Counted from the first letter of the stretch, positions 5,624 through 33,991 are shown. The stretch: DNA of 42,801 bases from an archaeon (GCA_035289125.1 DATDXW010000039.1:1-42801), one strand, 5' to 3'. Program-made: numbers and translations. Notes: a model not told the origin generated them from the sequence alone.

Positions 5624-6763
5624 TCAGCATTGCGGGCGTGCCGTGTAAACGCCCTGCGCGTCGGCGCACTGCGTCGTGACTCGTACAGATGAAAAGTCTG
5701 ACGGGCATGAAAGCACGCCTTTCCCGTCGTCAAATTTCCAGTATCCAACAAGGTCGTTGGTATTCGGAACCGCAAATGCGCCCATGTTCATGCTGTCGTT
5801 TATCTCGTTGCCTCCGAGCGAGCGATTCCACACCTGCACTTCGTCTATCGTGCCGTTGTAATATCCACTGACAGCATCTCTCAGCTTGCCTATATTGAGA
5901 TCGAGTGCCGACACAAGCAGGTCCCCGTTGCTGGGAATCCATGAAGAGGAGTTCTTTACTGTTCCGTCAACGTAAAGCATTGTGGAGTTCCCTGATTTGG
6001 AGCCTGTGCATGCCACATAATACCATATTCCCGGCTGGGCCTCCTTATCAAAACTCTGGATATACGTGCTGGCATCGGCAAATTCGCATCCCCAACCAAA
6101 CAATGCGTCTCCCCCGCCTAGAGATATCGCGTAAGGAGGCACACTGAGAGATGCATCAAATTTCTGTACGACTCTATACCATGTCACAGTTTTATTCGCT
6201 TTCAGCCATGCCGCTACTGTTATCTCTCGGAGTATGTTGAGAGCTGAACTGGTCGGGACCCTCACATAATCATCCACGCCGTCAAACGACATGGCACCCC
6301 CTTTCTTGCCGCTGAGCAGGTAAGCGCATGTCTGATTTCCTGCGCTCATGCCATAGCATATTCCATTGTTGATTCGCAACGAAGAATCCGCCGTGCCGTT
6401 CGTGTTGTACGGCATCTTGAACGTAAGCGTTCCCATTTGCCCAACGTTCAGCGTAAGCGTGTTGTTTGCCGAAAAATTGTTGCCCAGCCTGTCGTAAAGC
6501 TGCCCGCTCGTCACTGCGAGATTGTCCACGTTGCCGCTGTTCTGAACGATAACAGACGCCGTGCCGTTGTTTCCGGCGCCGATGAAAACGTTATTAATTG
6601 TTATCGCCGAAGAAGAGCACGATAGGGCGGAAGCCGTCCTATTGGACACTTCGTTTTGCGACGAAGAGAAAGTAGACGTCGTCCATCCGGAAACGATAGA
6701 AGCGACAGTAACGGTTATCGCTATCAGCAGAATCGAAGCGAGCAACGGAGATATTCCTTTCAT
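5624..6763 (-). CDS. Type IV pilin-like protein with class III signal peptide and an internal LamG (concanavalin-like) domain
   Basis: Likely start is MKG/ISPLLASILLIAITVTVA at 6763; the ORF track start at 6829 is an in-frame leader. LamG_3 signature: MSFDGVDDYVRVP...LYVDG...YNGTIDEVQVWNRSL. The C-terminus keeps the Cys-x(n)-Cys tail shared with the short pilins. Confidence 0.8.
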   Translation of the reverse strand: MKGISPLLASILLIAITVTVASIVSGWTTSTFSSSQNEVSNRTASALSCSSSAITINNVFIGAGNNGTASVIVQNSGNVDNLAVTSGQLYDRLGNNFSANNTLTLNVGQMGTLTFKMPYNTNGTADSSLRINNGICYGMSAGNQTCAYLLSGKKGGAMSFDGVDDYVRVPTSSALNILREITVAAWLKANKTVTWYRVVQKFDASLSVPPYAISLGGGDALFGWGCEFADASTYIQSFDKEAQPGIWYYVACTGSKSGNSTMLYVDGTVKNSSSWIPSNGDLLVSALDLNIGKLRDAVSGYYNGTIDEVQVWNRSLGGNEINDSMNMGAFAVPNTNDLVGYWKFDDGKGVLSCPSDFSSVRVTTQCADAQGVYTARPQC

Positions 6764-6764
6764 A

Positions 6765-6830
6765 TCCCCTTGTTCACTTCGGCAACTTGACGCACTTCGT
6801 GCGTCTGACAGCATCCAAGCCGATGCCATG
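6765..6830. repeat. Left arm of the 66-bp inverted repeat (5' leader of the LamG pilin gene)
   Basis: Reverse complement of 8192-8257, identical at 64 of 66 positions by hand alignment. Contains the SD-like aagggga directly 5' of the ATG at 6763. Confidence 0.9.
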
Positions 6831-6875
6831 TTCTATGTTTCATGCGGATATTTTCACGTCCTCGATTTAAGAGTC

Positions 6876-8114
6876 TTACAGCGCCCGCGCCGACGCACCG
6901 GCATGCCAACTCTGCCTCGGCTTAATCCTGATTTTGTATATCCGCTCCGAGTCGTCGTCCAAGATTATAGCCGAGCCTTTCAGCTTCGGCAGTTCGTTTA
7001 TGTATTTTGCGATGTTAAAGAGAACGTAAGTCTGCATTATTGACTTCAGCGAATCCACGTCATTTTCAGCCGTAAGTCTGTGTGAAATGATGATGTCGCA
7101 TTGCGACAGCGCATCGGGATGCAGTTTCATCGGCCGTTGCGTGGCAAGAACCAGCGAGATACCGGGTTGTCGCCCTTCCTTCACTATCTTGCTTAATATC
7201 TCGGACGATGGACTCGACGCATCGGACGGCAAAAAGTTATGCGCCTCGTCTATGAAAATCCATGGAAGCGGCACGCCCGAGCCTTCGGAAAACTCCATCT
7301 CCCCTATCTCCTCGCGCCTGCGCGCCGCCGTTCTTTCCGCGAATATCTTTCGCGCGATGACCGCCACGAGTAGCGAGCGCACGTTCTGCGACGTAAGACT
7401 GAAGTCAAGCACGGAAAGCTTGCCGGGCGCAAGAAACGGCGGCATGCCTGCATTGCCGAATATGCCCCACGCCTTGGCATTCTCCAGCATGCCTTCCAGG
7501 GCAATCTTCTCGTGCTCAAACCCGCGCTCTTCGCGGAGCGCCCGTATAATATCGTCTATGCTGAACGGGTTGCTCATTTTTCCTATGACTAACTGAAGCA
7601 GAGAACCTAAAGGAGACACGGGGGAAAGATTGAAAGTCGCCAGCCAGTCCTCCTGCGTCAGCTCCTGCGGCGCGAGCGAAAGCACTCCGTCATAGTCCAC
7701 CCCTGCGGCTGAAAAAGCCTTTGCCTGCCCTTCCGGCACGTATACGAAAGCCGGGAAGCCCCTGACGGTCTCGCCCCATTCATGGAGAAGCGCCGTTTCT
7801 TTTTCGTTCGGAGTCTTCATCGTCCAGAATACTCCCTGCGTATCGATTATTATCGTGCAGAGGCGGTCCTTTATTTCCCGGGGCGCGTTCTGCAAACCTT
7901 CGGCTATGGTTCCCATGCTGTACGACTTACCCTCGCCCCTCTTGCCGCAAATCGTTATCACATGCGGCCTCACTATATCAAGCATCACTGGCGTCGTGAG
8001 ATGTATATCCTCGCCTTCACCCGCAAGACTTTTGCCTATGTCTATGGCTCCTCTTGAGCCATACGTTTCTTTGTCCTTGATGTCCCTGCCGATTATCGTT
8101 TCCATAACGCCCAA
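6876..8114 (-). CDS. HerA/DUF87-like P-loop ATPase (FtsK-HerA superfamily)
   Basis: 412 aa. Walker A CGKRGEGKSYS, Walker B PWIFIDEAHNF, then LVLATQRP and IISHRL motifs typical of DUF87/HerA ATPases. No NurA or other nuclease partner is adjacent. Confidence 0.7.
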   Translation of the reverse strand: MGVMETIIGRDIKDKETYGSRGAIDIGKSLAGEGEDIHLTTPVMLDIVRPHVITICGKRGEGKSYSMGTIAEGLQNAPREIKDRLCTIIIDTQGVFWTMKTPNEKETALLHEWGETVRGFPAFVYVPEGQAKAFSAAGVDYDGVLSLAPQELTQEDWLATFNLSPVSPLGSLLQLVIGKMSNPFSIDDIIRALREERGFEHEKIALEGMLENAKAWGIFGNAGMPPFLAPGKLSVLDFSLTSQNVRSLLVAVIARKIFAERTAARRREEIGEMEFSEGSGVPLPWIFIDEAHNFLPSDASSPSSEILSKIVKEGRQPGISLVLATQRPMKLHPDALSQCDIIISHRLTAENDVDSLKSIMQTYVLFNIAKYINELPKLKGSAIILDDDSERIYKIRIKPRQSWHAGASARAL

Positions 8115-8191
8115 AAAATATTGTCTTCGTTATTATTTATCGCTCTGCCAACGTCATAGAGAAACAGTGATGGCTAGGATGAGCAGGATAA

Positions 8192-8257
8192 CATGGCATC
8201 GGCTTGGATGCTGTCATATGCACGAAGTGCGTCAAGTTGCCGAAGTGAACAAGGGGA
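8192..8257. repeat. Right arm of the 66-bp inverted repeat (orphan leader copy)
   Basis: See 6765-6830. This copy is followed by a stop after 24 codons (MASAWMLSYARSASSCRSEQGEKT*) and not by a pilin ORF. Confidence 0.9.
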
Positions 8258-8268
8258 GAAGACATAAT

Positions 8269-8304
8269 ATGGCATCGACTTGTGAACGAAGTGAACAAGG
8301 GGAT
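8269..8304 (+). repeat. Short deletion derivative of the same leader module
   Basis: atggcatcgacttgtgaacgaagtgaacaaggggat retains both ends of the 66-bp unit but lacks the roughly 40-nt gcaacttgacgcac core. Confidence 0.8.
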
Positions 8305-8313
8305 ATTGATATA

Positions 8314-8895
8314 TCATAATGCGGTGGTGGTTGCCAGTATGAGCAGGAAGCAGAGCACCCAGAATTTCGCGTCCCATGCGAAGACCTTGCTACCGTCCAG
8401 CGGCGGGAATGGTATCATGTTGAACAGAGCAAGCTGCAGATTCACCCGCGCTCCGATTGCCGCAACGTCGCCCAGATATCCACCCAGTAAAAAGAACGCC
8501 AGCGCAATGAAGACGTTGGAAGCCGGGCCCGCTATGGATATGATTCCGTTCATGCTCTTCGTTATCGCCTTTGTTCGCCCCCATATGTCAGCCCGCGATT
8601 GTATGTATACGGCGCCCGGCGCCGCAAATATCACGCCAAAGAGGGATAGCGCAAGCGCTGCCACTATTCCGGTATTCCACATCCTGTACTCCGCATAAGC
8701 CCCGTAGGCACGGGCAACGAACCGATGGCAAAGCTCATGCAGCACGAAACCCGATGACACAGAAGCAAGGAACATCCCGACCGCGTAAAGCGAGAGCCCA
8801 TCTATGCCCGAAAGCCCGCCGTTATCCGCCAGCGCAAAAGCCACTGCCAAAGCCACAGCCGAAACCACTATGTCCTGCGCTTCTTTGCGTTCCAC
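8314..8895 (-). CDS. Site-2 protease family (M50) membrane metalloprotease
   Basis: HELCHRFVARAYG (HExxH) and NMIPFPPLDGSKV motifs. I moved the start to the in-frame GTG at 8895, because the first 64 codons of the track ORF overlap the SRP RNA gene. Confidence 0.8.
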   Translation of the reverse strand: MERKEAQDIVVSAVALAVAFALADNGGLSGIDGLSLYAVGMFLASVSSGFVLHELCHRFVARAYGAYAEYRMWNTGIVAALALSLFGVIFAAPGAVYIQSRADIWGRTKAITKSMNGIISIAGPASNVFIALAFFLLGGYLGDVAAIGARVNLQLALFNMIPFPPLDGSKVFAWDAKFWVLCFLLILATTTAL

Positions 8896-8909
8896 TGAAT
8901 CACCATGAT

Positions 8910-9280
8910 GGAGGCGCGCCCTCGGTAGACAGCCCGCGAACAGCAGGTTTGTCCTCCGCGATTGCTCGGTCCGGCGAACCCGCGAGCACCCCGTGTACGG
9001 GTTACGGTTGCTGCCTTCCAGCCCTGGCCGGTTTGCCGCGCAGGAATCCCGCAGGACCGGGCGTCTTCGCTCCTGCGAAGGGCCCACTATCCGCGTGCCG
9101 CCGTCCTCAGGCTTCGGCCCCGGCTGAAGCGGTTTGCCGTTTATGAACCGTGCATGGCATTACATGGCGGAATCTACGATTCCGCCCGTACAGGTGGAGC
9201 TTTGCTCCACCATGTATATGGCACTGCTTCCTGTGCATCGGTTTGTCATAGGTGCCCGCTAAACACCCGGCCTAGCCTCC
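8910..9280 (-). ncRNA. ffs: Signal recognition particle RNA (7S/SRP RNA)
   Basis: GC-rich, highly self-complementary stretch. The minus strand starts GGAGGCTAGGCCGGG and ends GCGCCTCC, so the termini pair. An internal CCAGGGCTGGAAGGCAGCAACCGTAACCC matches the conserved helix-8 pattern (GGAA tetraloop plus AGCA). Ends are approximate. Confidence 0.8.
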
Positions 9281-9329
9281 AAGAATTATTCGGAAGGAAT
9301 GTACTTAAACGGGAAAAATCGGTTCTGTC

Positions 9330-9371
9330 GGGCTTATAACAGATGCCAAGGATTAACTGATTTATAAGCCC
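9330..9371. promoter_or_regulatory. 10-bp inverted repeat GGGCTTATAA/TTATAAGCCC upstream of the putative restriction gene
   Basis: Perfect arms at 9330-9339 and 9362-9371 with a 22-nt spacer. Each arm contains a TATA-like TTATAA. It lies 19 nt before the ATG at 9390. Confidence 0.3.
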
Positions 9372-9389
9372 TGTTGCCCATGAATTTTC

Positions 9390-9872
9390 ATGGCGATAAA
9401 GACAGGAGTTTTCAAATGGAATATTACGGAAATATCAAAAGCCCTCAAAATAAAGGAAGCGGACGTAAGACTCTATTTCACGGACGGGCGCAGAGTTTCT
9501 TTCATACTTGAAAGAAGAATCGCCTATGAAATACTAAAAGGTTCGCTTGCCCCAAGCGAAGGGGCGGGTTATGATGTTCTTGATACCGATGGCGGGAAGT
9601 GGGAAGTAAGAAGCATAAGCAAGGATGGCATATATTTCTGTCCGAGTTATATGGTAGGGTCTGGTCGCAAGTTTGAATTACAAGGTTTCCTAAAGAAACT
9701 GAAAGAAGTGAGAGGTTATATAATTTCAGATATAGAGTCTTTCCCAGAAGTGCCGTTTTGGATAATACCCGTAGAACAGGTTAAACGGTGGTGGGAACAC
9801 GGAAAGTTAGGAAAGAATACGAAAATTACCCGTGCTACTGCTTTAAGTCTTATTGCTAATTTGTCTGGATAG
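9390..9872 (+). CDS. Putative type II restriction endonuclease (PD-(D/E)xK-like)
   Basis: 160 aa, convergent with the methyltransferase and overlapping it by 30 nt. Candidate catalytic stretch is GYDVLDTDGGKWEVRSISK. AT-rich like its partner. No family recognised by eye. Confidence 0.45.
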   Translation: MAIKTGVFKWNITEISKALKIKEADVRLYFTDGRRVSFILERRIAYEILKGSLAPSEGAGYDVLDTDGGKWEVRSISKDGIYFCPSYMVGSGRKFELQGFLKKLKEVRGYIISDIESFPEVPFWIIPVEQVKRWWEHGKLGKNTKITRATALSLIANLSG

Positions 9873-10655
9873 AAAAGCTTGCGATAACTTATCCCGTGAA
9901 ATCTTCGCATAGTGCGGGTCTATCTCAAAGCCTATGAATTTGCATCCTAATTTCTTCGCCACTACACAAGTCGTTCCAGAGCCGAGAAATGGGTCCAAAA
10001 CTACTGTGTTCTGATTATGACCGTGAAGCTTGATGCACATTTCAGGCAGTTGTTCGGGAAAAGAAGCGGGATGCTCTTTTTCAGACTGCACCGTTTTGTA
10101 GGGAATGAACCATATATTGCCTCTGTCTCTTTTATCTCCGTTGGATTTCCCGTGATTCCATCTATCTATATTTGACTTGTCTGCATAAGGAACGCCCGTA
10201 GCTAATTTATCTATATTTACATTCTTATTTTTTGTAAAATGAAAAATATACTCATGGCAGTTGTTTAGAAGCTTCCGGCTATTTACAGGCTTGAAATGCC
10301 CTATATTGATTTTGTGTTCTGGCACGGCAATGGATTTAACCCAATGGATAGTATTCTGTAATCTCAGGCGTTCACTTATCTGTCTCGCCGTTTCAAACGC
10401 CTTAAACTCGTCCGTTGCTTTGTCACCTATGTTGAAGAATAAAGAACCATTTTCCTTCAATACGCGTTTACAGGCTTTCCCGAATTCAAGCATCCACTTC
10501 AGATATTCGTCATATTTCAGCTTGTCCTTGTAAGTTTTGTATTGAACACCGATATTGTAAGGCGGAGATGTAACGATTATATCTATACTGTTTGCCTCTA
10601 AAACGCCGTTCATTCCTTTTATGCAATCCATTTCATAGATTTGATTTACTTCCAC
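9843..10655 (-). CDS. DNA methyltransferase, beta class (N4-cytosine or N6-adenine; N4/N6 MTase family)
   Basis: 270 aa. Motif IV IIVTSPPYN is near the N-terminus and motif I VLDPFLGSGTT near the C-terminus. GTG start preceded by ggggtg. Confidence 0.9.
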   Translation of the reverse strand: MEVNQIYEMDCIKGMNGVLEANSIDIIVTSPPYNIGVQYKTYKDKLKYDEYLKWMLEFGKACKRVLKENGSLFFNIGDKATDEFKAFETARQISERLRLQNTIHWVKSIAVPEHKINIGHFKPVNSRKLLNNCHEYIFHFTKNKNVNIDKLATGVPYADKSNIDRWNHGKSNGDKRDRGNIWFIPYKTVQSEKEHPASFPEQLPEMCIKLHGHNQNTVVLDPFLGSGTTCVVAKKLGCKFIGFEIDPHYAKISRDKLSQAFLSRQISNKT

Positions 10656-10817
10656 TTTCTACACCCCATATGAAGCTGCCTTATCGGCGCTAATCACTTA
10701 TTCTTGTCAAGCTTTAAGTCTATTTTCGCCTCATCTTTTATCATTATCATTTGTGTTAGCAATTATGTTAGTTATGTTAGAGAAAGTATTTAAATATCTG
10801 ATAGTCAATATGTTAAC

Positions 10818-10955
10818 ATGGCTACTCTGGACAAGCCTGCTGGCATAACTGTGACACTTGTTAACAGGAAGAAGAACAAAAGCAAGAGTTTTGTAGTCTA
10901 TGATATATCGTTAGAAGATGCGGAACGCGTAATTAAAGAGGCATTCAAGAAATAA
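10818..10955 (+). CDS. Possible 45-aa small protein next to the R-M module
   Basis: Hand translation MATLDKPAGITVTLVNRKKNKSKSFVVYDISLEDAERVIKEAFKK. tatttaaata lies about 30 nt upstream, and three TGTTAG direct repeats lie upstream. Below the ORF-track size cutoff. Confidence 0.25.
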   Translation: MATLDKPAGITVTLVNRKKNKSKSFVVYDISLEDAERVIKEAFKK

Positions 10956-10964
10956 TTCAGAAAA

Positions 10965-11414
10965 CTACGCGCACACCGGAGTCTCGCCCGCAGAACCGTA
11001 CTCGCCGGAAACGCCGCATCTTGTTGAAATAAAGGCGCGGCTGAAGTTCGCGCAGGCCGTTATCACGTTCGTCATGTTGAGGCTTACGCTTGCCTGCGAC
11101 CCGCGTGTTAAAGTCACGGGTAGCTGCGTCAGGTTCGTGGTTATCTGCCCGCGCGTATTCGTTATCGACGCGCCATTTATGGAATCGTCATCAAAGCCCG
11201 AGTTCCTTACGATTATCCGCCCAACCGAGTTTGCCATGTCCAGGTATACCTTTTCTATTACAACGGCTGCCGTATTGCATTCCATAGTCTTGTTCCTTAT
11301 ATCGTTGCCCGTGGACGCCTGGATATTGACCATCCAGTTCAGCGTCAGCGTTGCAACGACTAGCACTATGCCCACAAGAATCACTGCCGCCACGAGCGTA
11401 GATATTCCTTTCAT
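10965..11414 (-). CDS. Short type IV pilin-like protein (class III signal peptide)
   Basis: MKG/ISTLVAAVILVGIVLVVA N-terminus. Shared paralog motifs ECNTAAVVIEKVYLD...IIVRNSG and C-terminal CANFS...C. Confidence 0.8.
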   Translation of the reverse strand: MKGISTLVAAVILVGIVLVVATLTLNWMVNIQASTGNDIRNKTMECNTAAVVIEKVYLDMANSVGRIIVRNSGFDDDSINGASITNTRGQITTNLTQLPVTLTRGSQASVSLNMTNVITACANFSRAFISTRCGVSGEYGSAGETPVCA

Positions 11415-11851
11415 CAGCAGCCCTCCGCCCTTGTAGTCTCGTCTGACAGGCAGCTCGTGGTTATCACGGATTTGCTGTAATTCGCGCAGGCCGGCAACGC
11501 GCTGCTGAGGTTAAATGTTATGAGCGCCCGCTGGCCCCGCGACATGTCCATCGGCAACTGCGACGCATTGGCAAGCGCCATGCCGACTCCTCTCTTGTTC
11601 AGTATACTCGCGCTCACCACCTGAGCGTCGCCTTTTGCCAGAACGTACATCCTGCTCACGTTATTCTGGAAATCCAGATAAACGTTTTCTATGGTAACGA
11701 CGTTGCATTCCGTGACGAACGAGGACTTGTTTGAGAGTGCCTGCGTATCTTTCCGCACAAGCGTAAGAGCCCACGGACTCAAAATAGTGGCAAGCGTGAA
11801 AGCTATTGCCAGCAGCAGAACGGAAGCTATCAGCGGCGATATTCCTTTCAT
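11414..11851 (-). CDS. Short type IV pilin-like protein (class III signal peptide)
   Basis: MKG/ISPLIASVLLLAIAF (start taken at the second ATG). ECNVVTIENVYLD and CANYS...C motifs. Its stop overlaps the start of the downstream pilin gene. Confidence 0.8.
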   Translation of the reverse strand: MKGISPLIASVLLLAIAFTLATILSPWALTLVRKDTQALSNKSSFVTECNVVTIENVYLDFQNNVSRMYVLAKGDAQVVSASILNKRGVGMALANASQLPMDMSRGQRALITFNLSSALPACANYSKSVITTSCLSDETTRAEGC

Positions 11852-11897
11852 AATCAATATTTTGTGCCGATTCTATATAAATAAGTCTTTGCCGTGT

Positions 11898-14843
11898 TCA
11901 GCCTATAGCTCTGTTGATTATTTTCACTTCGTCTATCACGCCATTGAAGAATGATGTTGGATTGTCTCGGCGGGTGGCGCCTATAGTAAATCCCGTATCT
12001 GCGTTGCATACATTGCCCGTAGTAGGCACGGGCGCGCTCGCATCAAGAATTCCATCAACATAAAGCATGATTTGCATGCCATTGTAAACCATAGCGCCAT
12101 GATGCCATGCGTTATCATTGATAATCGTATTTCCGGTGATGTCAAATCTGTTTGTTGGATTAACACAACCGCCCGTATAGCCCGCGCCGTGCAAAGTTCT
12201 TTCTGTCGGATATTTGATAATCACGATGCCCGAGCCGCCCGAGCCGCCATTATTAGTTCCCGCCGCGCCTCCGCCTCCTCCTGTATTCGCAGTGCCTGAT
12301 GCGCCATTGCCTCCAGAAGCGCCCGCTCCTCCTCCGCAGGTGGCGGAACCTCCTGAGGTAGCTCCGCCTCCTCCTCCTCCGCCCGCATAACAGACGGAAG
12401 AACCGGAGATGCTGTTGCTTGTTCCGTTTCCTCCCGCTCCTCCAGCATTTCCATTTCCATTTGCTCCTGCCGAGGAAGCTCCACCGCCACCGCCTCCACC
12501 GAATGCCTTTGTAACGCCATTGCCGCCATTATTTCCTTGCGATGGAGAAGTGCTTGGCGTGTTGCCCGCGCCTCCCAAGCCCGGAGTATGAGCCTCTCCG
12601 CCGCCGCCGGAACCACCTGCTGCTCCATTAACATTTCCTCCCATACTGCCTGCTGTTCCTCCTCCACGGCCTCCGCCTGTTGCGGTTATCGTGCTGAATA
12701 TAGAAGCTGTGCCATTTTCATTATTTACGCTATTGGGAACGGCTCCCACGCCTCCAGCTCCAACCGTTACGGTGTATGCTTGAGCGGTAATGCCGAAAGA
12801 CGGATTATACCTATATCCTCCCGCTCCGCCGCCGCCAGAGCGTCCGCTACTATATGAGCCGCCGCCGCCGCCGCCAACAACGAGGACTTCGGCATTAAGA
12901 TTTCTATTTGCCGTGAATGTTCCGCTACTTGTAAATGTGTGAATGGTATAACCTCCACTGTATGTTATTGTTCCGCCTGTTACATTATCACTGCCCGTGA
13001 ACATGGTAAATGCTCCGGGACTAAACCCTGACGCAAATTTATCAAATATTGTCCCGCTCGTGCTATTTGAATTGGACGTTTTAAACCATCCACTAACTGT
13101 AAATGATGTAGTGTTTTGCCACGCATAATCGGAATTCACGACATAATCATTAATGCCGTCAAAAGTGAGTGCTTTCTCATATCGGCCAGTGTAATCATAT
13201 ATGTGCGAGTCATACGCCGTCGTGCCTGTGCCTTCTTCAAATCTCCATGCTCCTACAATACCGTGTCTTACCATTACGTTATTCATGCTCTGATTTATTT
13301 CTGCCGCATTCAATGCGCGATTCCAGATTTGGACTTCATCAATGGAACCAGTAAAATAAGTTTCCATGCCTGCATTGGAATTGTAACCTATAGTCAAAGG
13401 ATAAATATAGTTAGTCATCGTGATAGCGCCACTTACTGGCAAACTCGTTACCGCCACATTTCGCAATTTCAAATAGTTACCGCTTCCTCCTGTCCCAGAA
13501 CCGTCATCCAATTTGAATCTAACATACAGAGGCGTAGTAATTGAGGAACCTGTATAAGAGAGGTCTTGCCAGTTGCCGTTGGTGGAACCTGTTGTTTGAC
13601 TTTGTGTAGTCCATGACGTTCCATCGGTACTGGTTTGTAAGTGAACTGTTGTGCCCCAGTTAGAGCCGCCTACTCCTTGTGCTGAAACAGTGCCTGACCA
13701 CCTTTTGGGAAGTATGGTAGCATTTTTCCCAAGTTGAAGAAGGTGACTTATGCCCCATCCACTTCCTCCTTTCCCTCGCACCTCTGTGCCCTGGTAGAGA
13801 ATGGCCGCTCCTCCTTCCGTTGCCGCAGTAATATCAAAATATTTTAGAGCATCTGCTAATGAATTAAGTTCAATAACAGAATTAATGGCTTCAAACTGCG
13901 TGGACCTATTTTCAGTACCTTTTAGTACTCCATTAATATATATTGATGCAGTAAAATCATCATATGTTCCTACTAAATGATACCAGCCCGTAGATGTAAT
14001 ACTATTATCTCCGCCTGTTACCTCTATCACAGAAGAATTACCAATGACTGCAAATCTAATCTGGTTTACTCTTGATAGAGATGCCCTATCATCCCAAAAA
14101 ACTGCATATCCGTCTGCACCACGAATATTTGTTCTTGACAATATATATGCAACATGATTATCTAACGAAGCAGAACTCGTATCAATATAAACCCATGCAG
14201 ATACTGTTACGGTATTAGTTGGATTTAAACTTGACGAATTTAAAATATTGACATAATCATTAATCCCGTCAAATTTCATCGCGTTCCCGTACTTCCCATC
14301 TACCTGTGCAGGGCAATCAGGACACGCGGGGCGCAATGTCCCGTCATTCCAGCTCTCGCCGGAAAACGTGCCGTCGCTACCACCGACGGAATCTTTAACG
14401 ACTGTGCTCAATGTTGCGTCATCAAACTGCCAATAATTGGAAAGAACAACCGGATTGTCCGCGTCTATTTCATTTCCTGCGGCGACTATTTTTATTTTTC
14501 CAACTGGCAGACTCGCCAGCTCTATCTGATTGAAAACCAGCGTGCCGACCCTGCCCGGCGCTATCGGGGATGCGAGCGTCGCTGTAACGGGCGTTCCGTT
14601 CATCAGCGTGGTTACCTGCGTGACAGGCGACGAGCCTACGTTCTTTATCGTAATCGTCCCGCTGCCGGATGCCACGGGTCCTATTAACTGCCCCTGCGTG
14701 AAAATTTGCGACTGTGTTGCCTGCTCGGCTTGTGTGCCGCTTTGCACGACAACCGTCTGGAAAAACGCAGCGGTGAAGCCGATTATTGATATCGTGATGA
14801 GAAGTAATAATATTATCGCGATGACGGACGTTATTCCTTTCAT
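11898..14843 (-). CDS. Giant pilin-like surface protein: class III signal peptide, several LamG domains, and a glycine-rich domain nested in the last LamG domain
   Basis: 981 aa. N-terminus MKG/ITSVIAIILLLLITISIIGF. Three LamG signatures: KFDGINDYVNIL, GSIDEVQIWNRAL and LTFDGINDYVV...NGVIDEVKIINRAIG. Gly-rich block YTIHTFTSSGTFTA...VVGGGGGG...GGSGIVIIKYP. Confidence 0.85.
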   Translation of the reverse strand: MKGITSVIAIILLLLITISIIGFTAAFFQTVVVQSGTQAEQATQSQIFTQGQLIGPVASGSGTITIKNVGSSPVTQVTTLMNGTPVTATLASPIAPGRVGTLVFNQIELASLPVGKIKIVAAGNEIDADNPVVLSNYWQFDDATLSTVVKDSVGGSDGTFSGESWNDGTLRPACPDCPAQVDGKYGNAMKFDGINDYVNILNSSSLNPTNTVTVSAWVYIDTSSASLDNHVAYILSRTNIRGADGYAVFWDDRASLSRVNQIRFAVIGNSSVIEVTGGDNSITSTGWYHLVGTYDDFTASIYINGVLKGTENRSTQFEAINSVIELNSLADALKYFDITAATEGGAAILYQGTEVRGKGGSGWGISHLLQLGKNATILPKRWSGTVSAQGVGGSNWGTTVHLQTSTDGTSWTTQSQTTGSTNGNWQDLSYTGSSITTPLYVRFKLDDGSGTGGSGNYLKLRNVAVTSLPVSGAITMTNYIYPLTIGYNSNAGMETYFTGSIDEVQIWNRALNAAEINQSMNNVMVRHGIVGAWRFEEGTGTTAYDSHIYDYTGRYEKALTFDGINDYVVNSDYAWQNTTSFTVSGWFKTSNSNSTSGTIFDKFASGFSPGAFTMFTGSDNVTGGTITYSGGYTIHTFTSSGTFTANRNLNAEVLVVGGGGGGSYSSGRSGGGGAGGYRYNPSFGITAQAYTVTVGAGGVGAVPNSVNNENGTASIFSTITATGGGRGGGTAGSMGGNVNGAAGGSGGGGEAHTPGLGGAGNTPSTSPSQGNNGGNGVTKAFGGGGGGGASSAGANGNGNAGGAGGNGTSNSISGSSVCYAGGGGGGGATSGGSATCGGGAGASGGNGASGTANTGGGGGAAGTNNGGSGGSGIVIIKYPTERTLHGAGYTGGCVNPTNRFDITGNTIINDNAWHHGAMVYNGMQIMLYVDGILDASAPVPTTGNVCNADTGFTIGATRRDNPTSFFNGVIDEVKIINRAIG

Positions 14844-14992
14844 GATATATATTGCACGTCCGTAGTATTAAAATTAAACGTACCGTCAGGGCTTTGTTTA
14901 AATAATCTGTCGCAATACGATGGGTTGCGATGTTTGCTTTCTGAAACACAACGAGCTGTGGTATGAAACCATTTATTAAACAAAGCCTACCG

Positions 14993-15466
14993 TCAGCATC
15001 CCTTTGGCACGCCATCAAATCTCACGGAATCGCACGCGCTCCCCACTATTGCGAAAGAGAAATTGGCGCATGCCGGTATCAACGAAGACGTATCAAAGTT
15101 GAAATAGGCGTAGCCTCCTCTCGTCACGTTCACTGGAAACTCCGTGAGGTTCGTCGCCGGCGTTCCCGTGTTGGAATAAACCACAGCCGAGCGCACCTGT
15201 TCGTTCGTATAGCCGGAGTTTCTTACTATCATCCTTGCGCGGCTGTTCGCATTGTCCAAGTATACGTCTTCTATGCTCAGCGACGCCGCGTTGCATCGAA
15301 CGGTCTCATCCGTCTTGTTTTCCACAGTCTTCGTCGTTGAGCCGATAAGCGTGTTGAACCATCCGGCAAATATCGGCACGACCGTGACAGCTATGGCTAC
15401 CATAAGCACCGCCGCGAGAATCGGCGAGATTCCTTTCTTATGCGATGAACCTGACATTCTTTGCAC
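14993..15466 (-). CDS. Short type IV pilin-like protein (class III signal peptide)
   Basis: KKG/ISPILAAVLMVAIAVTVV. RCNAASLSIEDVYLD...MIVRNSG and CANFS...C motifs shared with 10965 and 11414. Confidence 0.8.
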   Translation of the reverse strand: MQRMSGSSHKKGISPILAAVLMVAIAVTVVPIFAGWFNTLIGSTTKTVENKTDETVRCNAASLSIEDVYLDNANSRARMIVRNSGYTNEQVRSAVVYSNTGTPATNLTEFPVNVTRGGYAYFNFDTSSLIPACANFSFAIVGSACDSVRFDGVPKGC

Positions 15467-15519
15467 CCCTAATCTTTTGAAACATTTTGTCGTCGGCGGT
15501 TATAAGTATGACAGATACA

Positions 15520-15750
15520 TCAAGAACGAGACGCATAGCGTTTGCCCCTCCACTCCCTAACTATGTCCGTCATATTGGGACTTTTTTTAGAGGACACTTC
15601 CTTTCGTATGATGTCCATGGCATTGGAAGCCCTCTGTATTTTCGCATTATCGCTATATTTTGACACCGTCATATACTCAAATCTCCCTCCCTTGTGTCTC
15701 TTCCGCATCCTGTCCTGAAACGCCATGACTTTCGCCATTTCTATTATCAT
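15520..15750 (-). CDS. Hypothetical 76-aa protein
   Basis: ORF with tttaaataaaaa about 20 nt upstream of the ATG on the minus strand. No family recognised. Confidence 0.4.
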   Translation of the reverse strand: MIIEMAKVMAFQDRMRKRHKGGRFEYMTVSKYSDNAKIQRASNAMDIIRKEVSSKKSPNMTDIVREWRGKRYASRS

Positions 15751-15840
15751 GAGAATATGTGACGCGCTTTTTATTTAAACTTTCTTGCCGCGAACACTTG
15801 TCACGGTAAAGACTAAGACGCGCCAGTCAAACTGCTGAAA

Positions 15841-15968
15841 GAAAAGGACTCATCAGGCATGGTTGTATTTTAGCGGTGCGGTTCGTCTTCGGCTTTATTA
15901 CAAGGAATTCGTAGAATTCCTTGTATGCCCAAAGACTTTCCACGGAAAGTCTTTGTTGTACTTGTTGC
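15841..15968 (+). repeat. Core of a MITE-like intergenic repeat (copy 1) with two long palindromes
   Basis: Aligns with 34558-34684. Palindromes are caaggaattcgtagaattccttg (15901-15923) and caaagactttccacggaaagtctttg (15930-15955). Weaker similarity extends to about 15820-16065. Confidence 0.85.
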
Positions 15969-16071
15969 CGTCCTGTCAAAGAGTGAACCACTAATCCGCA
16001 CCCATCTCAGCTGCCCGCCAAAGATGTGCAGCTTTCGTTATGCAGGAATGTATTTGAAAGAACAAGCGGGA

Positions 16072-16209
16072 TTATAAATTATTTCTTTTTCCGAGCTCCA
16101 CAGCAATGTCATATAAAACGTTTATATGTGTGGTTTCTTCCTTATCACTGTCCGTTATACCTCTTTCCAATTTCCTCTGTACTACATGGTTACTATATCT
16201 TAATTTCAT
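16072..16209 (-). CDS. 45-aa ORF resembling the N-terminus of DUF4258-type small toxins (possible truncated remnant)
   Basis: MKLRYSNHVVQRKLERGITDSD resembles the common MKIRYSxHAxxRMxERGI start of DUF4258 proteins, and the ORF then ends early. gaggg precedes the ATG. Confidence 0.2.
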   Translation of the reverse strand: MKLRYSNHVVQRKLERGITDSDKEETTHINVLYDIAVELGKRNNL

Positions 16210-16219
16210 TCCATAGCCC

Positions 16220-18220
16220 TCATAAACATTGCTCGTAATACACGTCGCTGCCGTAGTAGCTGTCCGTGACTCCGGGGCAGTTGTCCGTGGCAAAGCGGAC
16301 GCGGTCTATGGAAGAAACAGGCATACACATGCCGCCTGTATCATAAGGATACCACTTGGTTATCACCTTACCCGATGTATCCTCCACTTCCACCCGGAAT
16401 TCTGTGTTCGCCTTCGCGTTCTCGTAGCGGGTATAATACGAAGACGCGCCGTTCTGGTTCGTGGACTGGTTTACAAGACCGGTAGCGTTGAAGAGGCGCA
16501 CGAACATTATATTGGGATAAGTGACATTTATGTTCAGCGTTACGTTGAAAGAACGGTTAAACGACGAAACGCGCACTTCGTCTATCGTGCCATTGAATGC
16601 CAGCGTTTTGTTTACCGTGGCATTCACCCCGCCGATGAAAGAATTGCTCCCGAAGACGACCATGCCGCGGTTGGAAGACGAATTTACCAGATGGCTATCC
16701 AGATACAGCGATGCCGTGCTGTCATTGTATGTTCCTGCGACATTGTGCCATCCCGTCGTCCATGAAGATACGTCGTAGCCTGCCGAAGTGTTGCCTGCCG
16801 TAAACCGCATCGTGGTTCCCGTCTTGTGCAGGGAAAGCCCGCCGAGATAGCGGTCGCGGATTTCCTCGGGAGAGAGCGTCCTGTTGTATATGGCAACTTC
16901 GTCTATCGTGCCGTTCCAGAAGTATGCGCTATCTCCCGACTGCCCGCCCACAAACAGGTTGACGTCATTCCACATGGCATCTCCTGCCGTGTATGTAAGC
17001 GTTTCCCTGGGAATGCCGTCCTGATACGTTTTCCAGTTGGCGGAAGCCAGCGACTTGTCGTAAGTGACGGCTATGTGAACCCACCGGTTTAACGCGGACG
17101 TGTCGCCCCACAGCAAGCTAGTTGTACCCGGTGCCAGAAACCACTTTTTACTCGCGGCGTAATAACCAACGGCTAATCTGCCCTGTGCATAATAACTCTT
17201 GGAAATCCAGAAGCTCCATTTGTCCTGCTTTAGGTACACCCATCCCATGATTGTAAGGGTGCCGTTGATTTTCAGGCGTGCCGGATTCCCGAAATCGATG
17301 TATTGGTTGACACCATTTAAATCCCACCCCGTCCCGAACCTGCCGCTGTTCGTGAACGTCGGGCTGTTCGTGGCAGTGCCGGAGTTGCCGTAAGGCGACG
17401 AGTCTTTTACGCCGCTGGAACCCGTGCTGTTCTCCGAAAAGTGCGTCAGCAATACCAGCCCTGCATCCGTGTTGCTTATCTGCGACGGCGTGGCGAATAT
17501 TGTGTAGTTGTTTGAAGCGATATTCTTGTTCATGTTTATCCACGCTTCCACGGTGCCCGTGTTATTGCTAAAACTGCTGGAGGCAAGTTGCACGTAGTCG
17601 CCAGCACTATCAAATGTTATCGCCGAGCCGAACTTGCCGCTGCTGTTCCATGCGGGGCATTGTGCCGCGGCGCCCTGGCACACCGTACTGCCGTTGAACA
17701 GCGTTCCGGTTATACTTGAAGAATTGTCCGTGGCGTTTGTCCCGCTACTATAATCAAAGTGATAAAGCATCGTCGTGTTCGTGTCGTTGAAGTAAGCGGC
17801 ACGGGTGTCCATCGTTCCGACGGGCATGCGGGGCGACGCCCAAATCTGTATGGCATTGAAAGCTTCGTTCGTCGTGGAGCCGGCGCTCAGCGAGGAAGGA
17901 GTGCCGTAAAGGACGTGGGATATTCCGTTGCTTAACGTTATAATGATGTTTGACAGCGAAACGCTCTGCGAACCAGTGTTTTCTATGGACGCGTTCAGAG
18001 AGTAAGGCGAGCCTGTGAAACAGTTATAATTGCACGCAACCGAGACATTACGAACGTAGAAAGAAGCCATCTGGCACGCAAGCTTCGTGGTCGTCTGGTT
18101 CTTCAGCTCCTGCCCCTGACTCTGAAAGAGAGACGTCGCCCATCCTGATATGATGGAAGCCGTCGTGACAGTGATGATTATCATCAGTATGGCTATTATA
18201 AGCGGGTCTGCCCCCTTCAT
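16220..18220 (-). CDS. Type IV pilin-like protein with class III signal peptide and two LamG domains
   Basis: Start taken at MKG/ADPLIIAILMIIITVTTA (18220); the track ORF starts 28 codons earlier. LamG signatures ITFDSAGDYVQL, WNGTIDEVAIYNRTLSPEEI and FNGTIDEVRVSSF. Cys-containing tail. Confidence 0.8.
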   Translation of the reverse strand: MKGADPLIIAILMIIITVTTASIISGWATSLFQSQGQELKNQTTTKLACQMASFYVRNVSVACNYNCFTGSPYSLNASIENTGSQSVSLSNIIITLSNGISHVLYGTPSSLSAGSTTNEAFNAIQIWASPRMPVGTMDTRAAYFNDTNTTMLYHFDYSSGTNATDNSSSITGTLFNGSTVCQGAAAQCPAWNSSGKFGSAITFDSAGDYVQLASSSFSNNTGTVEAWINMNKNIASNNYTIFATPSQISNTDAGLVLLTHFSENSTGSSGVKDSSPYGNSGTATNSPTFTNSGRFGTGWDLNGVNQYIDFGNPARLKINGTLTIMGWVYLKQDKWSFWISKSYYAQGRLAVGYYAASKKWFLAPGTTSLLWGDTSALNRWVHIAVTYDKSLASANWKTYQDGIPRETLTYTAGDAMWNDVNLFVGGQSGDSAYFWNGTIDEVAIYNRTLSPEEIRDRYLGGLSLHKTGTTMRFTAGNTSAGYDVSSWTTGWHNVAGTYNDSTASLYLDSHLVNSSSNRGMVVFGSNSFIGGVNATVNKTLAFNGTIDEVRVSSFNRSFNVTLNINVTYPNIMFVRLFNATGLVNQSTNQNGASSYYTRYENAKANTEFRVEVEDTSGKVITKWYPYDTGGMCMPVSSIDRVRFATDNCPGVTDSYYGSDVYYEQCL

Positions 18221-33568: not shown

Positions 33569-33991
33569 ATGGTGGCAAAAGGTATAACCTCAGTGATTGC
33601 GGTAATACTGCTACTCCTCATAACTATAGCAGTAATCGGATTCGCTACGGGATTCTTCCAGACCATCGTCCAAACGTCCGGAACACAGGCCACGGACGCC
33701 GCACAGCAGACTGGCGACAGGTTGCAGAAAACCGTAGAGTTTGTCGCGGCATCCGCTGATACCGTGACTGTCAAGAACGCAGGAACGACTACGATGACTA
33801 CTGCAACCGATTTGACCGTGCTCATAGCTGGCGTGCCCAAAACATGCACATGGTCTGCGGCTTCTGTCGCAGCCGGTACGACGACAACCTGCACCATAAC
33901 AGCAACAGCCGGCAACGACTGCACGCCATCAGCGGCCGCGATAACCGTGGTAGCGCCCGGAAATGACGACACGTCTGGAAAATGCCCGTAA
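33569..33991 (+). CDS. Type IV pilin-like protein (candidate major pilin, class 2 N-terminus)
   Basis: MVAKG/ITSVIAVILLLLITIAVIGFATGFFQT. Thr/Ala-rich 140 aa. cataaataaa and aaggtga lie upstream. The N-terminal 45 aa are nearly identical to the giant protein at 14843. Confidence 0.85.
   Translation: MVAKGITSVIAVILLLLITIAVIGFATGFFQTIVQTSGTQATDAAQQTGDRLQKTVEFVAASADTVTVKNAGTTTMTTATDLTVLIAGVPKTCTWSAASVAAGTTTTCTITATAGNDCTPSAAAITVVAPGNDDTSGKCP

Follow-up and report, generated by a model that had tools for sequence, protein, structure and literature searches.

A stand-alone island of probable type IV pilin genes in a small-genome archaeon, with LamG modules nested in the pilin head or appended to it

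Modular pilins are known from bacteria. In Streptococcus sanguinis, PilC consists of a pilin moiety, an immunoglobulin (Ig)-like module and a concanavalin A (ConA)-like lectin, and PilB of a pilin moiety and a vWA module (PMC9934059, PMC8179133); the ConA-like module of PilC is a proven glycan-binding lectin (PMC9934059). Both are minor subunits presumed to be at the pilus tip and to function in adhesion. The DNA examined here is an entire 42.8-kb contig (C39; DATDXW010000039.1, 42,801 nucleotides), called the window below, from an archaeal genome of 770 kb in 72 contigs that is roughly 90% complete. It contains seven pilin-like genes: A (5624-6763), B (10965-11414), C (11414-11851), D (11898-14843), E (14993-15466) and F (16220-18220) on the minus strand and G (33569-33991) on the plus strand. 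We consider it likely that these are archaeal type IV pilin genes grouped in a stand-alone island, and that A, D and F are modular and carry LamG binding modules. Like PilB and PilC, these three combine a class III pilin moiety with a bulky, presumably adhesive module, which is of the ConA-like/LamG superfamily, and the same role as minor subunits at the tip is presumed for them. They differ in being archaeal, with an archaeal head fold and signal motif, and in A and F the module is nested within the pilin and followed by a cysteine-stapled tail, whereas the modules of PilB and PilC are C-terminal grafts. D alone has the appended topology of PilB and PilC.

A second point of comparison is the expansion of LamG and jelly-roll proteins in DPANN archaea, some of them beside type IV pilus loci, which has been noted for the Mia14 Micrarchaeota (PMC5498576) and for the Undinarchaeota (PMC7414124). 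As there, the present case concerns small-genome archaea rich in LamG surface proteins that are presumed to make contact with a host, and a link to pili had been noted. In the passages on LamG in those two papers the proteins are not presented as class III-signal pilins, and no nested topology is mentioned. Unlike in those passages, every complete LamG protein of the present genome is a pilin: there are exactly three, A, D and F. The only other LamG-bearing open reading frame (ORF), at 2-1300 of contig C40, runs off the start of its contig, which leaves it without an N-terminus, and may encode a fourth modular pilin.

The N-termini of all seven proteins read (M..)KG, then I/A-S/T/D-P/S/T, then about 20 hydrophobic residues. 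A class III signal, that is a short charged leader ending in K/R-G/A ahead of about 20 hydrophobic residues, is present in seven of seven. An earlier, sequence-only reading of the contig had named seven ORFs with such signals, and every one of them was found where it had been placed. The NCBIfam model TIGR02537 (archaellin/type IV pilin N-terminal domain, cutoff 20 bits) scored above its cutoff for A (26.6 bits), C (22.4 bits) and E (25.8 bits), with G just under it (18.3 bits). Scanning the whole genome with the N-terminal pattern and a hidden Markov model (HMM) gave 13-14 matching frames, seven of them on this contig. The naive binomial probability of such clustering is ~2e-6 for seven on a 42.8-kb contig and 3e-8 for six within 12.6 kb. 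The subfamily-1 proteins defined below contain 2-3.9 N-glycosylation sequons per 100 residues against 0.5 in the long ORFs of the genome, an enrichment of 4-8 fold, which fits extracellular archaeal pilins.

The seven had been described as one family of paralogs. The description as type IV pilin paralogs was retained, while the single family had to be divided into two subfamilies, with only the N-terminal signal and helix in common. Subfamily 1 comprises A, B, C, E and F and has a common KGISPL...SGW, found also in four short pilins on contigs C15 and C54. Subfamily 2 comprises D and G, which have KGITSVIA.ILLLLITI..GF..FFQT in common and are 55% identical over the first 69 residues; a short pilin of contig C48 and a 329-residue pilin of contig C43 begin in the same way. 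Four of the seven are short and non-modular. B (149 residues; N-terminal HMM 46 bits), C (145 residues; one-base overlap with B) and E (148-157 residues depending on the start chosen) belong to subfamily 1, and G (140 residues; N-terminal HMM 48.6 bits) to subfamily 2. The motifs proposed for the short paralogs, ECN..IE.VYLD....R.IVRNSG and ACAN(F/Y)S....C....C, do align in B, C and E in a proper multiple alignment. B aligns over its full length with C, E and the pilins of contigs C15 and C54, and has a weak UpsA-like match along its full length. E, D, C and B are likely to be one gene run with E first.

A word-based homolog search with pilin E returned two proteins only, of which one, P0063, is a homolog at 41% identity, and a full profile scan with HMMER was needed to recover the family. 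The subfamily-1 profile then matched 1732 cluster representatives at E<=1e-3, and 248 at E<=1e-10, among 1.84 billion, mostly of 145-160 residues. Within 201 sampled genomes of the phylum, short pilins of this family are present across the family and the order.

The identity of the short proteins as pilins was examined by profile and by fold. A profile of the seven short subfamily-1 members (alignment A3) matches over its positions 2-136 the sequence of PDB entry 8FK7 (E 5.4e-8), the solved 'flagellar-like' type IV pilus subunit of Pyrobaculum calidifontis. An AlphaFold2 model of the short paralog C54b (predicted local distance difference test, pLDDT, 75; 80-88 in the head) consists of a helix at 6-51 and eight strands. 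Its best match in the PDB is 8fk7_A (E 3.9e-5, template modelling score 0.60/0.66, 150 aligned columns), and the third-ranked match is the P. arsenaticum pilus (6w8u). The short paralog therefore has the lollipop fold, an N-terminal helix plus a beta-sandwich head, that is seen in solved archaeal pilins including 8FK7 (PMC10334743) and 6W8U (PMC7347861). Identity to 8FK7 is about 26%, and the short paralogs differ from it by a C-terminal extension with three cysteines. The solved Pyrobaculum pilins carry no inserted module. The head in the present family is a small Ig-like beta-sandwich stapled by four conserved cysteines. A 613-residue metagenomic relative, P0211, has no class III signal and carries the pilin head with its cysteine tail twice in tandem, indicating that the head domain exists outside pilins too.

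The LamG modules were located with the Pfam model Laminin_G_3 (PF13385), which is above threshold in A (68 bits, residues 161-322), D (149.5 bits in four stretches) and F (116.5 bits in three stretches). The sequence-only reading had all three modules inserted into the pilin scaffold. This holds for A and F, on the evidence of alignment, of the orthologs of F and of the corresponding site in 8FK7, but not for D. In A (379 residues) the signal and helix occupy residues 1-45, a six-strand sheet 46-123, the nested LamG module ~124-348 and the cysteine-stapled tail 349-379. Alignment of A with the short paralogs of its own genome opens a single gap of ~225 residues (A ~124-348), bounded by the strand 'GTLTFKMP' and the tail 'LSCPSDFSSVRVTTQC..C'. 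The short pilins have '(S/A)CPA.F..L.VTTNCGG....T..P.C' aligned to this tail. In the 8FK7 alignment the insertion site falls in the loop that joins 'GTIQTINVPG' to the last strand, 'YIVKVVTA', and thus the insertion lies within the canonical pilin fold. The AlphaFold2 model of A (pLDDT 67.9) retains the six sheet strands within 54-116, followed by a LamG jelly roll and tail strands at 357-364 and 370-373. A Foldseek search of the PDB with this model gave solely LamG-type matches (LamG, pentraxin and the lectin domain of trans-sialidase, E about 1e-7) and is uninformative on the pilin part.

F (666 residues) has the same subfamily-1 N-half (~1-140) and ends in a tail of the form C-x15-C-x16-C (631-666). 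Between them are ~490 inserted residues holding three nested LamG domains and a beta-rich block, and both ends align with the short pilins. The F orthologs P0213, P0214 and P0217 keep the N-half and the tail, P0217 with one LamG domain instead of three. A 736-residue pilin from locus L013 was rejected as a further ortholog of F, its similarity being only at the level of LamG; it resembles D instead. The modular proteins accordingly have an extra domain together with a complete pilin moiety, the pilin halves aligning with non-modular paralogs. D (981 residues) has a subfamily-2 pilin domain (~1-125) and two LamG domains. The protein ends in a LamG domain with no cysteine tail, so the modules of D are appended. 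Its first LamG domain matches model positions 1-111 and 117-151, separated by ~160 residues with an F5/8 type C-like match, and its second is split by a Gly_rich_2 domain (638-878, 240 residues, 67 bits).

There is a precedent of sorts for a domain within the pilin fold. GspK, the minor pseudopilin at the tip of type II secretion systems, was reportedly described by Korotkov and Hol in 2008 as having a large domain inserted in its pilin fold, and is said to be a bulky subunit confined to the tip for that reason. GspK differs from A and F in being bacterial, in having an alpha-helical insert and in having no lectin module. It is not known to have any sequence relation to A or F. A LamG-like minor subunit, TafC (NF052521), is also known from the Tat-fimbriae of haloarchaea (PMC11821415). 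Subunits of these fimbriae are exported by the Tat pathway and, according to a related paper, are assembled by strand donation and not as type IV filaments. A (30 bits) and D (67 bits) match the TafC model in the LamG region only and far under its 410-bit cutoff, and membership of that family was rejected.

The nested arrangement is conserved. Twelve full-length orthologs of A, at 40-65% identity, and three full orthologs of F retain the N-half and the tail. In the A family C49, C353, C366 and C379 are invariant, and mean pairwise identity is 0.56 in the helix, 0.54 in the sheet and 0.58 in the tail against 0.33 in the LamG core. Full-length A was found in only two of the 201 sampled genomes, the present one and a congener. 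The contents of the insertion vary among the long matches of the profile search. LamG alone is nested in P0074, P0077, P0116 and P0196; LamG halves flank propeller-type repeats in P0073 and P0082 (weak, sub-threshold Pfam Kelch matches) and, by eye only and with no Pfam match, propeller-like repeats in P0072; and P0194 has a nested Kelch propeller alone (148 bits). In other relatives the module is appended after a complete tail: LamG in P0170, P0183 and P0201, and FG-GAP in P0192. P0138 belongs to this appended group too.

The nested LamG domain appears to be strand-permuted, as judged from the order of its motifs. In nested members 'DSS..GNNGT' comes directly after the pilin sheet, and the 'LVGYWKFDEGKG' strand comes after the LamG core and before the cysteine tail. 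In A these are residues 124-134 and 337-348, and the orthologs P0002-P0013 are alike. The usual order, 'LVGYWKFDEGKG' before 'DSS..GNNGT', is found in D (126-150) and in the appended P0183 and P0201. This suggests that the inserts originated in tandem LamG arrays, from which they were excised in a displaced register. As a tentative idea, somewhat short of what we would call probable, evolution may have used the loop ahead of the last strand as a 'socket', swapping binding modules there while helix, sheet and cysteine tail stay constant; this would equip these episymbiont-type archaea with a re-targetable, pilus-borne device for host recognition. A separate observation concerns the 5' ends of the genes. 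In P0009, P0013, P0073 and P0082 the true start is preceded by between one and three additional partial repeats of the first 12 codons ('KGISPLLATVLK'), a pattern suggestive of recombination or duplication affecting the conserved 5' end of the pilin gene.

Processing and assembly require further genes. A candidate class III signal (prepilin) peptidase of the A24/FlaK-like type is encoded at 1501-2298 on the minus strand, as had been proposed from the sequence. Its Peptidase_A24 match, 23.6 bits as a protein and 27.2 bits in a six-frame search of the genome (cutoff 26.5), is the sole match in the genome. The candidate catalytic residues are Asp19 (LWDLKTTEVPD) and Asp81 (GEADAW), and the gene is syntenic in a congeneric genome. 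The proposed lack of PilB/FlaI-type and PilC/FlaJ-type genes in the window was also correct, as a profile search found no T2SSE or T2SSF match on the contig. The search of the rest of the genome for pilB and pilC homologs that had been recommended gave three loci with both T2SSE and T2SSF, that is an ATPase and a platform protein, on contigs C43, C46 and C63. Those of C43 and C46 have split platform genes and pilin-like accessory genes; at C63 a long ATPase is paired with one platform gene. The locus at C43 4070-11773 is a complete pilus locus with the 329-residue subfamily-2 pilin, three more pilin-like ORFs, a FlaI-like ATPase and two half-size platform genes. This pilin, directly beside the ATPase and platform genes, has a Thr-rich linker and a Cys-rich C-terminal domain for which no Pfam match was found. 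The arrangements of the three loci resemble 'system 1' and 'system 2' of a recent classification (PMC13705601).

These machineries were compared with that of the archaellum. The three ATPases scored 380 (C43), 422 (C46) and 142 (C63) bits against the FlaI model, whose equivalog cutoff is 550 bits, and the KaiC-like neighbour of the C46 ATPase is not ArlH (34 bits, cutoff 215). Scores under both cutoffs indicate that the machineries are of pilus type, and the archaellum reading was ruled out. The archaellin model Arch_flagellin matched only E among the seven proteins, with an E-value of 0.058. In the more contiguous genome of a congener (G057) contig C2 carries the pilin island, the ATPases lie on contigs C1, C3, C4 and C8, and hence the separation of island and machinery is conserved. 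In archaea, pilin genes usually stand apart from the machinery that serves them (Makarova et al. 2016, PMC4858521). Given this and the three loci elsewhere, the absence of a motor from the window is no puzzle.

One gene in the window could nevertheless be thought of as a motor. Next to pilin A, at 6876-8114 on the minus strand, is a HerA/DUF87-like P-loop ATPase (DUF87 29 bits, HerA_C 21 bits), followed by an M50 gene (8314 to about 8900). If these two together drove assembly or secretion of the LamG pilins as a novel, dedicated motor, the lack of PilB and PilC genes in the window would be explained. The ATPase has distant similarities of the CedB/CedD/VirB4 type, and the order M50, HerA-like gene, pilin A recurs in the congener, where a second LamG pilin lies on the other side. 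However, the best matches of the ATPase are cytoplasmic HerA helicases (PDB HerA chains, E 2.7e-14) and canonical pairs of ATPase and platform genes exist elsewhere in the genome. The conserved order in the congener is part of a fully collinear neighbourhood (Pus10, GCD14, UppS, A24, Fe-ADH), so that the linkage of HerA and pilin may be plain synteny, and at a more distant ortholog of pilin A (L014) neither HerA nor M50 adjoins the pilin gene. With canonical motors elsewhere and the linkage lost at L014, the ATPase was rejected as the motor, a role that we find scarcely credible. It is probably a neighbour outside the pilus system.

A repeat surrounds the same gene. A leader cassette of 73 nucleotides (6760-6832, minus strand) ends in the ATG of pilin A, and a 95% inverted copy (8190-8262) lies on the far side of the HerA-like gene, with a second short copy after it (8268-8306). 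Partial copies were found by blastn-short on many contigs, including C27, C26, C17, C9, C25, C69 and C48. So many dispersed copies point to a leader or hairpin cassette and not to an invertible switch specific to the pilin. A role of the two repeats in phase variation of the pilin was therefore rejected; inversion would, moreover, leave the pilin's own leader unchanged.

Several findings weigh against the island of modular and non-modular pilins proposed here. B, D, F and G fall under the TIGR02537 cutoff, the A24 match is marginal, and the AlphaFold2 model of A is of moderate quality only and lacks the N-terminal helix. That the tail strands of A pack against the sheet is predicted from the alignment and secondary structure, and we infer filament formation, processing and binding downstream of the sequence. 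The Pfam model Pilin_N reaches its threshold in none of the seven, with sub-threshold scores for five (15.6-19.6 against 25.2 bits). This last point would agree with the N-termini being ordinary Sec signal anchors and the proteins being generic secreted or anchored LamG surface proteins with no relation to type IV filaments. The public annotation of homologs of the LamG pilins is just 'LamG domain-containing protein', and in one DPANN paper the export of LamG proteins is attributed to Sec (PMC9563170). Against such an origin, the KG-I-S-P and hydrophobic helix are common to short proteins that match a solved pilin by both sequence and fold, TIGR02537 is above cutoff in three members, and the genome retains a prepilin peptidase and three assembly loci. 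Ordinary Sec anchoring is therefore very improbable.

A further point against filament subunits is that class III signals in archaea are found also on non-filament, non-pilin binding proteins, for example the sugar-binding proteins of the bindosome (PMC13705601). A, D and F might thus be bindosome-like surface receptors, anchored in the membrane or tethered by a short pseudopilus, with the pilin N-terminus serving only as anchor and processing signal. There are weak BasA and UpsA/B-type matches, and the bulky heads of A, D and F would fit poorly in a tightly packed filament. Yet the short paralogs have in full the fold of a solved pilin that forms filaments, A and F retain the full head, and equally bulky modular pilins of bacteria do enter pili (PMC9934059). 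We regard receptors of this kind as unlikely. The probable arrangement remains a filament built from the ordinary subunits B, C, E and G, with A, D and F as modular type IV pilins that display adhesin modules.

In such a system the prepilins would be inserted into the membrane by the N-terminal helix and their leaders removed after KG by the single A24 peptidase. The short pilins would then be polymerised into a filament by one or more of the three FlaI/TadC-type machineries. A, D and F would join it as minor subunits, either scattered sparsely over its length or at the tip, the latter being more probable given their bulk. By analogy with S. sanguinis PilC, their variable lectin-like LamG modules may bind glycans or proteins on the surface of a host or substrate. 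Adhesin-decorated pili on a small, host-attached archaeon, as the sequence-only reading envisaged, are a reasonable inference.

The remaining features of the contig identify its origin. An archaeal signal recognition particle (SRP) RNA is at 8908-9282, and the contig has archaeal housekeeping genes (Pus10, a GCD14-like methyltransferase, UppS, FtsZ and GatA/B). The nearest public homologs of the studied proteins are labelled 'Candidatus Aenigmarchaeota archaeon'. The SRP RNA, the housekeeping genes and these labels together indicate a small-genome DPANN archaeon. Between the pilin genes there is also an N6_N4 DNA methylase (9843-10655, minus strand, 191 bits) and, convergent with it, a plus-strand ORF of 160 residues (9390-9872). 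This ORF is a candidate restriction partner for which a Pfam search gave zero matches, and the restriction-modification module that had been proposed here is thus half verified.

DPANN archaea are thought to live attached to hosts, and how they recognise and hold those hosts is largely unknown. Papers on their genomes often report that pilin genes could not be found, or treat LamG proteins as generic Sec-exported proteins (PMC9563170). Modular pilins in bacteria and LamG expansions beside pilus loci in DPANN archaea were already known; less familiar are the nesting of a module inside the head of an archaeal pilin and a socket whose content can be exchanged. The nested pilins are a natural example of a pilin head tolerating very large insertions, which is relevant for protein display. 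With every complete LamG protein in one Aenigmarchaeota lineage being a type IV pilin, candidate adhesin modules are tied directly to the pilus, and the nested topology offers concrete candidates for host-binding subunits, with a conserved scaffold and an insert that diverges fast or can be exchanged.

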